64,000 nt of DNA, taken from sequence record OR844765; one strand, written 5' to 3'. The stretch's first letter is position 1. Each line of letters opens with the position of its first letter. Source of the DNA: Escherichia phage ECO111 5-P. The notes under the pieces were generated by a model, which saw only the letters and a list, made by a program, of their open reading frames with translations, was not told where the DNA came from and did not search any database. Positions 59,518 to 59,880 of the stretch are shown here, one piece after another. Made by a program: the position numbers and the translations under genes.

Positions 59518-59880
59518 ATGAAAGCATATCAAATTCTTGAAGGTGCACATAAAGGCACTATTTATTTTGAAGACGGTACTCAAGCCAGGATTATTGTCTC
59601 TAAGACTTTTAAAGAAGACGCTATTGTAGATCCGGAAATTTTCTACGGTTTGAATGCCCGTGAAATTGAAATTGAACATCAACCTAAAGTTAAAATTGAA
59701 GGTGGTCAACATCTGAACGTTAACGTTCTGCGTCGTGAAACTCTGGAAGATGCAGTTAAGCATCCGGAAAAATATCCGCAGCTGACCATTCGTGTATCCG
59801 GTTATGCAGTTCGCTTTAACTCTCTGACTCCAGAACAACAGCGCGACGTTATCGCTCGTACCTTTACTGAGAGTCTATAA
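59518..59880 (+). CDS. Autonomous glycyl-radical cofactor (GrcA/YfiD-like; T4 Y06I-type)
   Basis: 120 aa; C-terminal …[61 protein letters not shown] carries the glycyl-radical RVSGY motif and looks near-identical to recalled E. coli GrcA. Confidence 0.85.

Follow-up and report, generated by a model that had tools for sequence, protein, structure and literature searches.

The gene at positions 59518-59880 (+) of the window, which is the whole 64,000-nucleotide stretch of Escherichia phage ECO111 5-P (OR844765) analysed here, is the Tequatrovirus ortholog of T4 vs.6, encoding Y06I, and both the gene and what it does have been described before. Very probably, its product serves as a spare part for oxygen-cleaved pyruvate formate-lyase (PFL) and the gene is a mosaic that arose through gene conversion by host grcA. 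Its 5' half would be a copy of the GrcA N-terminus long resident in the phage lineage, and codons 61-117 would have been overwritten recently by host grcA DNA through homologous recombination. The gene itself adds nothing new; the useful part is this evolutionary pattern.

The complete ORF runs from ATG to TAA, encodes 120 amino acids and is preceded by a Shine-Dalgarno-like GAGG, read from the sequence four nucleotides 5' of the start codon (59510-59513, +). Its upstream neighbour is a vs.7 homolog (59203-59511, +; PHROG 2049) with 70 amino acids identical to T4 vs.7, and its stop codon overlaps the start (TAATG) of the downstream neighbour, an ORF in the vs.5 position (59880-60101, +; PHROG 1986) that is weakly similar to T4 vs.5. 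The gene order vs.8-vs.7-vs.6-vs.5-vs.4-vs.3-regB is as in T4, with neighbours matching T4 vs.8, vs.7, vs.4, vs.3, and regB. The window belongs to Tequatrovirus, and the 1.4 kb that include the gene and its surroundings have 97% identity with numerous T4-like Escherichia phages. With T4 vs.5, the ORF in that position has only 14 identical residues in common, while vs.8, vs.7, vs.4, and regB are well conserved, making this position a variable slot adjoining the host-derived tract. A scan for promoters and terminators around the vs.6 ortholog gave counts at the level of shuffled sequence and was uninformative. ARAGORN revealed two tRNA genes only in the window, an adjacent tRNA-Met(cat) and tRNA-Arg(tct) at 47155-47334 (+); the tRNA cluster of T4 is larger.

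The original prediction of a T4 Y06I-type protein, made from the letters alone, proved right: 112 of the 120 amino acids are identical to T4 vs.6. Both proteins are 120 amino acids long, are encoded upstream of regB by a gene flanked by vs.7 and vs.5, and carry a host-identical radical domain. They differ by seven substitutions in the N-terminal 60 residues and at residue 72, which is R here and H in T4; at the DNA level, the host-like tract of this phage carries four additional synonymous changes towards A/T, and its 3' edge is not quite the same. Homologs of vs.6 occur in about 1,588 phage records, including many Straboviridae genera and T5-like Demerecviridae.

Assignment of the product to the autonomous glycyl radical cofactors of the GrcA type rests on several profile and structure comparisons. 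The sole Pfam domain is Gly_radical (PF01228; residues 60-101, E=2e-18), PHROG 1209 is matched over the full length (residues 1-120, E=9e-63), and E. coli GrcA (PDB 6OWR) is matched with E=2e-42, compared with 3e-26 for PFL structures. The best NCBIfam matches are the GrcA and PFL models. With the GrcA equivalog TIGR04365, the protein scores 159.1 bits (E=5.8e-47, residues 18-120), which is under the 170-bit cutoff because its N-terminus has diverged. In keeping with the definition of the GrcA/YfiD family (TIGR04365, IPR011140), it is a small stand-alone protein with little beyond the glycyl radical domain; it carries the PFL-type radical loop RVSGY (R92-V93-S94-G95-Y96) with conserved flanks, and its N-terminal region is homologous to that of GrcA. 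The predicted radical-bearing glycine, Gly95 (GGT, 59800-59802, +), is the equivalent of GrcA Gly102 and PflB Gly734 in the alignments.

A formate C-acetyltransferase (PFL) identity was rejected, as the protein falls far short of about 760 amino acids and matches only positions 679-744 of the 744 in the TIGR01255 profile, with 89.6 bits against a cutoff of 994; for the same reason, the label 'pyruvate formate-lyase' in several phage records is wrong. GenBank annotation of the 120-amino-acid gene is inconsistent in general, with 'pyruvate formate-lyase', '2-ketobutyrate formate-lyase', 'acetyltransferase-related protein', 'endoribonuclease', and 'hypothetical protein' all in use, and the T4 RefSeq names vs.6 (NP_049730) GrcA. 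The likeness to PFL is confined to the C-terminal glycyl radical domain of PflB (residues 696-759), with which the phage protein shares fold and motif: the alignment covers phage residues 57-120 (E=3e-26), and the two sequences agree at 48 of the last 60 residues, with a run of 22 among them. The catalytic barrel and the Cys418/Cys419 pair of PflB are missing.

With regard to function, a passage of Andorfer et al. 2021 (PMC8683613), citing Wagner et al. 2001, names YfiD and T4 Y06I as the only two validated spare-part proteins. The same passage states that PFL-activating enzyme (PFL-AE) puts a glycyl radical on YfiD and Y06I, and that both bind to PFL cut by oxygen at Gly734 and make it active again. 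The N-terminus of YfiD (residues 1-60) is described there as disordered and important for radical installation by PFL-AE (PMC8683613). By analogy with T4 Y06I and E. coli YfiD/GrcA, we propose activation by PFL-AE and rescue of cleaved PFL for the protein of this phage as well. During infection at low oxygen, host PflA would install the radical on Gly95, and the radical domain would dock into host PFL cleaved by oxygen at Gly734, so that conversion of pyruvate to acetyl-CoA and formate would be restored and the fermentative ATP supply would continue. Formate is the reductant for class III (anaerobic) ribonucleotide reductase, and its supply for this enzyme (NrdD) would probably be kept up too. 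The benefit to the phage would accordingly lie in a PFL kept running in microaerobic infection, sustaining acetyl-CoA and ATP.

A protein of the same fold might have another role, acting as a decoy that titrates PFL-activating enzyme or blocks host GrcA/PFL, or as a spare part for TdcE or for phage or host NrdD. We consider this unlikely, though several observations lean towards it. The region important for radical installation in YfiD is 28% identical in the phage protein, and given that role, its divergence could alter the behaviour of the protein. The vs.6 homolog of Aeromonas phage phiAS5 is immediately flanked by nrdG (anaerobic ribonucleotide reductase activase) on one side and nrdC/nrdH on the other (segment 401-778), and that of Phi1 adjoins nrdC.11; these gene neighbours hint at a tie with anaerobic nucleotide metabolism. 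Nolan et al. 2006 (PMC1524935), who placed vs.6 in a set of eleven ORFs without known function that all the T4-like genomes compared there have in common, also suggested a role in nucleotide metabolism. These points are outweighed by the activation of T4 Y06I by PFL-AE and its restoration of cleaved PFL, as reported in the passage cited above (PMC8683613), and by a radical domain that is 100% of the GrcA type, the match of the protein to PflB over residues 57-120, and GrcA and PFL as its best NCBIfam models.

Compared with E. coli GrcA (YfiD), the phage protein has the same layout, a region corresponding to the disordered N-terminus of YfiD followed by the glycyl radical domain, and by analogy the same expected partners, PflA and oxygen-cleaved PflB. 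It is seven residues shorter, and its gene is located in an early-gene cluster of a lytic phage, whereas E. coli grcA lies between ung and eamB. From the letters alone, the C-terminal 60 or so residues including RVSGY had been thought near-identical to E. coli GrcA and the N-terminus diverged. In a global alignment, residues 61-120 and residues 68-127 of K-12 GrcA are identical at all 60 positions, including RVSGY, so that the similarity is even higher than predicted and not substantially lower, the outcome that would have spoken against it; in residues 1-60, 17 of 60 are shared.

The same division is seen at the DNA level, where the pairwise and codon-level comparison with grcA and the 3' end of pflB that had been suggested as a check was carried out. 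Aligned backwards from the stop codon, the last 61 codons (183 nt) match E. coli grcA at 95.6-96.2% of positions, with 7-8 nucleotide differences, all synonymous, and codons 61-117 hold only four differences, again all synonymous and all from G/C to A/T. The 20 codons 5' of the matched block are 50-53% identical to E. coli grcA, and the 5' half as a whole 46.7%. Where phage and E. coli have the same amino acid, they use the same codon at 52 of 60 positions in the 3' half and at 7 of 17 in the 5' half. T4 shares 57 of 59 codons with E. coli in the 3' half; as a yardstick for orthologs over the same part, E. coli shares 33 of 58 with Salmonella and 46 of 60 with Citrobacter amalonaticus. Over the 183 nt, T4 displays four differences from E. 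coli, T2 five, and OES_C-2 one. T2 equals an E. coli allele over 168 consecutive nucleotides, a span in which T4 has a single change, which is non-synonymous (R72H). With 77% identity over the last 183 nt, compared with about 96% for grcA, pflB was rejected as the donor.

The phage-type 5' half (codons 1-60; 59518-59697, +) has a GC content of 0.34, compared with 0.46 for the 3' part and 0.377 for the whole window. It is followed by the host-derived tract of 171 nt (codons 61-117; 59698-59868, +), which comprises the glycyl radical domain and was identified by codon alignments, a maximum chi-square analysis, donor comparison, and megablast. The maximum chi-square breakpoint falls after nucleotide 178-180 of the gene (59695-59698), and none of 2000 permutations reached the statistic. 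Base-by-base inspection of about 17 phage sequences revealed that the 5' junction is sharp and located at an identical codon in every phage examined. The last two to three codons are phage-type again, ending here in GAG AGT CTA TAA (59869-59880, +), where the hosts' grcA reads GAA AGC CTG TAA; other phage genera have these tail variants too, and the 3' edge is placed differently in T4, T2, OES_C-2, and this phage.

Comparison of the 3' 183 nt with grcA of 80 other species placed this phage closest to Escherichia. K-12 differs at eight positions and another Escherichia at nine, the next nearest being C. amalonaticus with 20, followed by the sampled Enterobacter and Klebsiella species with 26-31 and Salmonella with 32. 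When the 3' 183 nt of E. coli grcA were used as query, 638 phage records were at least 95% identical. The corresponding Salmonella control retrieved no phage record at 95% or above, peaking at 83.6%, and the Enterobacter control none at 95% or above, the best among the matches listed being 86.3% with one further record in the 90-95% band; on these grounds, Salmonella and Enterobacter grcA were discarded as donors for some of the phages. A megablast search of the 64-kb window against 5,426 complete E. coli genomes gave a single match, at 59696-59888, and none in the rest of the window. By sequence distance, Escherichia grcA is thus the nearest candidate donor of the tract. Recent capture of the whole gene was rejected, as no E. 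coli genome covers 80% or more of it and its 5' half is only 46.7% identical.

A second case was found in the Klebsiella phages of the sister genus Jiaodavirus (for example, pKp20, JD18, and Nispero), which have the phage-type 5' half (74% nucleotide identity), the same junction codon, and the phage-type tail. Their 3' tract, however, is of the Klebsiella type: L and E replace E75 and K80 (ETLLDAVEH instead of ETLEDAVKH), and the GC content is 0.56. Their 3' half differs from grcA of the K. variicola complex at 11 of 183 positions and from that of E. coli at 27, and numerous records of the genus reach 97.6% identity with Klebsiella grcA over 168 nt, compared with 86-89% for E. coli grcA. We counted informative sites per half in a quartet consisting of this window, pKp20, E. 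coli, and Klebsiella. Counts of 64:2:2 for the 5' half join the two phages; those of 2:18:0 for the 3' half place each phage with its host (Fisher p=2e-14). As judged from these sites, the inversion is a change of tree topology rather than a difference in rate. Since Jiaodavirus and Tequatrovirus have a common 5' half and 3' halves from different hosts, at least two replacements must have occurred at a homologous gene that was already present.

Taken at the level of sequence comparison, these results demonstrate a mosaic anatomy and a transfer from host to phage. The direction follows from the GC content of the tract, which across phages is 0.46-0.56 and tracks the host (5' half 0.33-0.36), and from the four tract changes, all of them from G/C to A/T, as expected for host DNA drifting towards phage base composition. 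At least two independent conversions are proposed, from Escherichia to Tequatrovirus and from Klebsiella to Jiaodavirus. They were presumably brought about by the phage's own homologous recombination acting on fragments of host DNA, with the 5' limit set where the similarity between phage and host collapses. As an outcome, the phage radical domain would stay identical to the domain already recognised by host PflA and PflB. Within Tequatrovirus, more than one conversion is weakly hinted at by synonymous sites, at which T4 and this phage have diverged less in the 3' half (4 of 56 codons) than in the 5' half (12 of 53; p=0.03), and by a CGC/CGT allele difference among phages. Converted alleles may have spread either through an advantage of exact identity with the host domain or through frequent recombination favoured by high similarity.

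The sharp 5' junction at an identical codon in every phage examined might also be expected if a 3' fragment of host grcA had been fused once, in frame and by illegitimate recombination, to an unrelated phage ORF, and the product had then diverged or spread from phage to phage. This is less probable still than another role of the protein. An hhalign comparison of 13 phage N-terminal parts with 66 distinct host N-terminal parts yielded a probability of 96.9% and E=1.6e-10, with 31% identity over 59 collinear columns, and an unrelated N-terminal ORF was rejected on this basis. From this homology it follows that the phage gene descends from a full-length grcA homolog acquired in the distant past. 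A single fusion is also hard to reconcile with sister genera in which a shared 5' half (74% at the nucleotide level) is combined with 3' halves that come from distinct host genera, and with the full-length homologs that more distant phages possess without host-like DNA.

The original prediction left the choice between recent host acquisition and strong constraint by host PFL-activating enzyme, and each holds in part. Recent acquisition applies to the 3' half, with its near-identical Escherichia synonymous sites, but not to the whole gene, the 5' half of which is old; constraint does exist at the protein level, where distant phages keep the motif, but cannot explain the DNA identity seen here. 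Constraint without any recent exchange would mean a single ancient capture of the whole gene, with C-terminal identity maintained by purifying selection through PflA/PflB and an N-terminus that drifted, and we regard this as very improbable. It can point to T5-like, Aeromonas, and Vibrio phages, in which the C-terminal protein domain is conserved and the DNA differs from any host sampled at 46-76 of 183 positions. Slopekvirus, Karamvirus, Pseudotevenvirus, and Krischvirus, together with those three groups, revealed no recent host-like DNA, with 27-76 differences in 183 nt to every host sampled, their natural hosts being sampled in part. Distant homologs of this kind, which keep the protein motif, illustrate the gene as shaped by constraint and nothing else. 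Selection acting at the protein level leaves synonymous sites free to change, yet 52 of 60 codons (57 of 59 in T4) agree with E. coli, compared with 33 of 58 between E. coli and Salmonella. The tract carries Escherichia-specific synonymous states, that of Jiaodavirus Klebsiella-specific ones, and its GC content jumps to host values. The quartet, with 18 host-specific synonymous states, contradicts a history without exchange, and protein constraint is insufficient because it cannot yield a change of topology. Mis-assembly of host reads into phage genomes, which only the unusual 100% host identity within a T4-like genome brings to mind, with nothing specific in its favour, can be practically dismissed, as the junction recurs across over 600 phage genomes sequenced independently of one another, T4, T2, RB27, and RB32 among them, the frame is intact, and the tract is followed by phage-type tail codons and the overlapping next start.

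Conversion of an old phage grcA homolog by host DNA thus remains the preferred reading. The host-specific tracts in sister genera show that lytic T4-like phages recombine with the host chromosome where homology allows. If such conversion recurs and keeps the radical domain matched to the current host, vs.6 would represent a rare ongoing flow of DNA from the bacterial chromosome to strictly lytic T4-like phages, and its tract would be a natural marker, or molecular record, of the recent host genus of a phage. The host-specific mosaic origin of vs.6 was found described nowhere in the open-access text searched, a scope outside which the key papers of 2001 and 2003 lie, so that priority may belong to them. 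That recurrent conversion from host to phage keeps the radical domain in step with the current host, and that this is both real and previously undescribed, is, taken jointly, a tentative proposition for which confidence and doubt are nearly balanced, with doubt slightly ahead.

Some further homologs deserve mention. T5-like Demerecviridae of Salmonella and E. coli encode a GrcA-like protein that is about 53% identical and whose DNA bears no mark of recent identity with hosts (46-53 differences in 183 nt; segment 401-769), and one of these genes is located a few hundred bases downstream of tRNA-Met. In Escherichia phage MIZ4 and phiAS5, RVSGYAVRF is replaced by RISGYA(T/V)RF and EGGQHLN by N(A/S)G(H/F)HLN, and the C-terminal part of MIZ4 is strongly unlike that of its fellow Krischvirus Phi1. 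On the bacterial side, an enterobacterial-type grcA (91% amino acid identity to E. coli) occurs in a record titled Vagococcus sp. WN89Y and labelled as a Firmicute, probably reflecting contamination or mislabelling. Another grcA copy is found on a 276-kb replicon of Klebsiella sp. WOUb02 that is annotated as a plasmid ('plasmid unnamed4').
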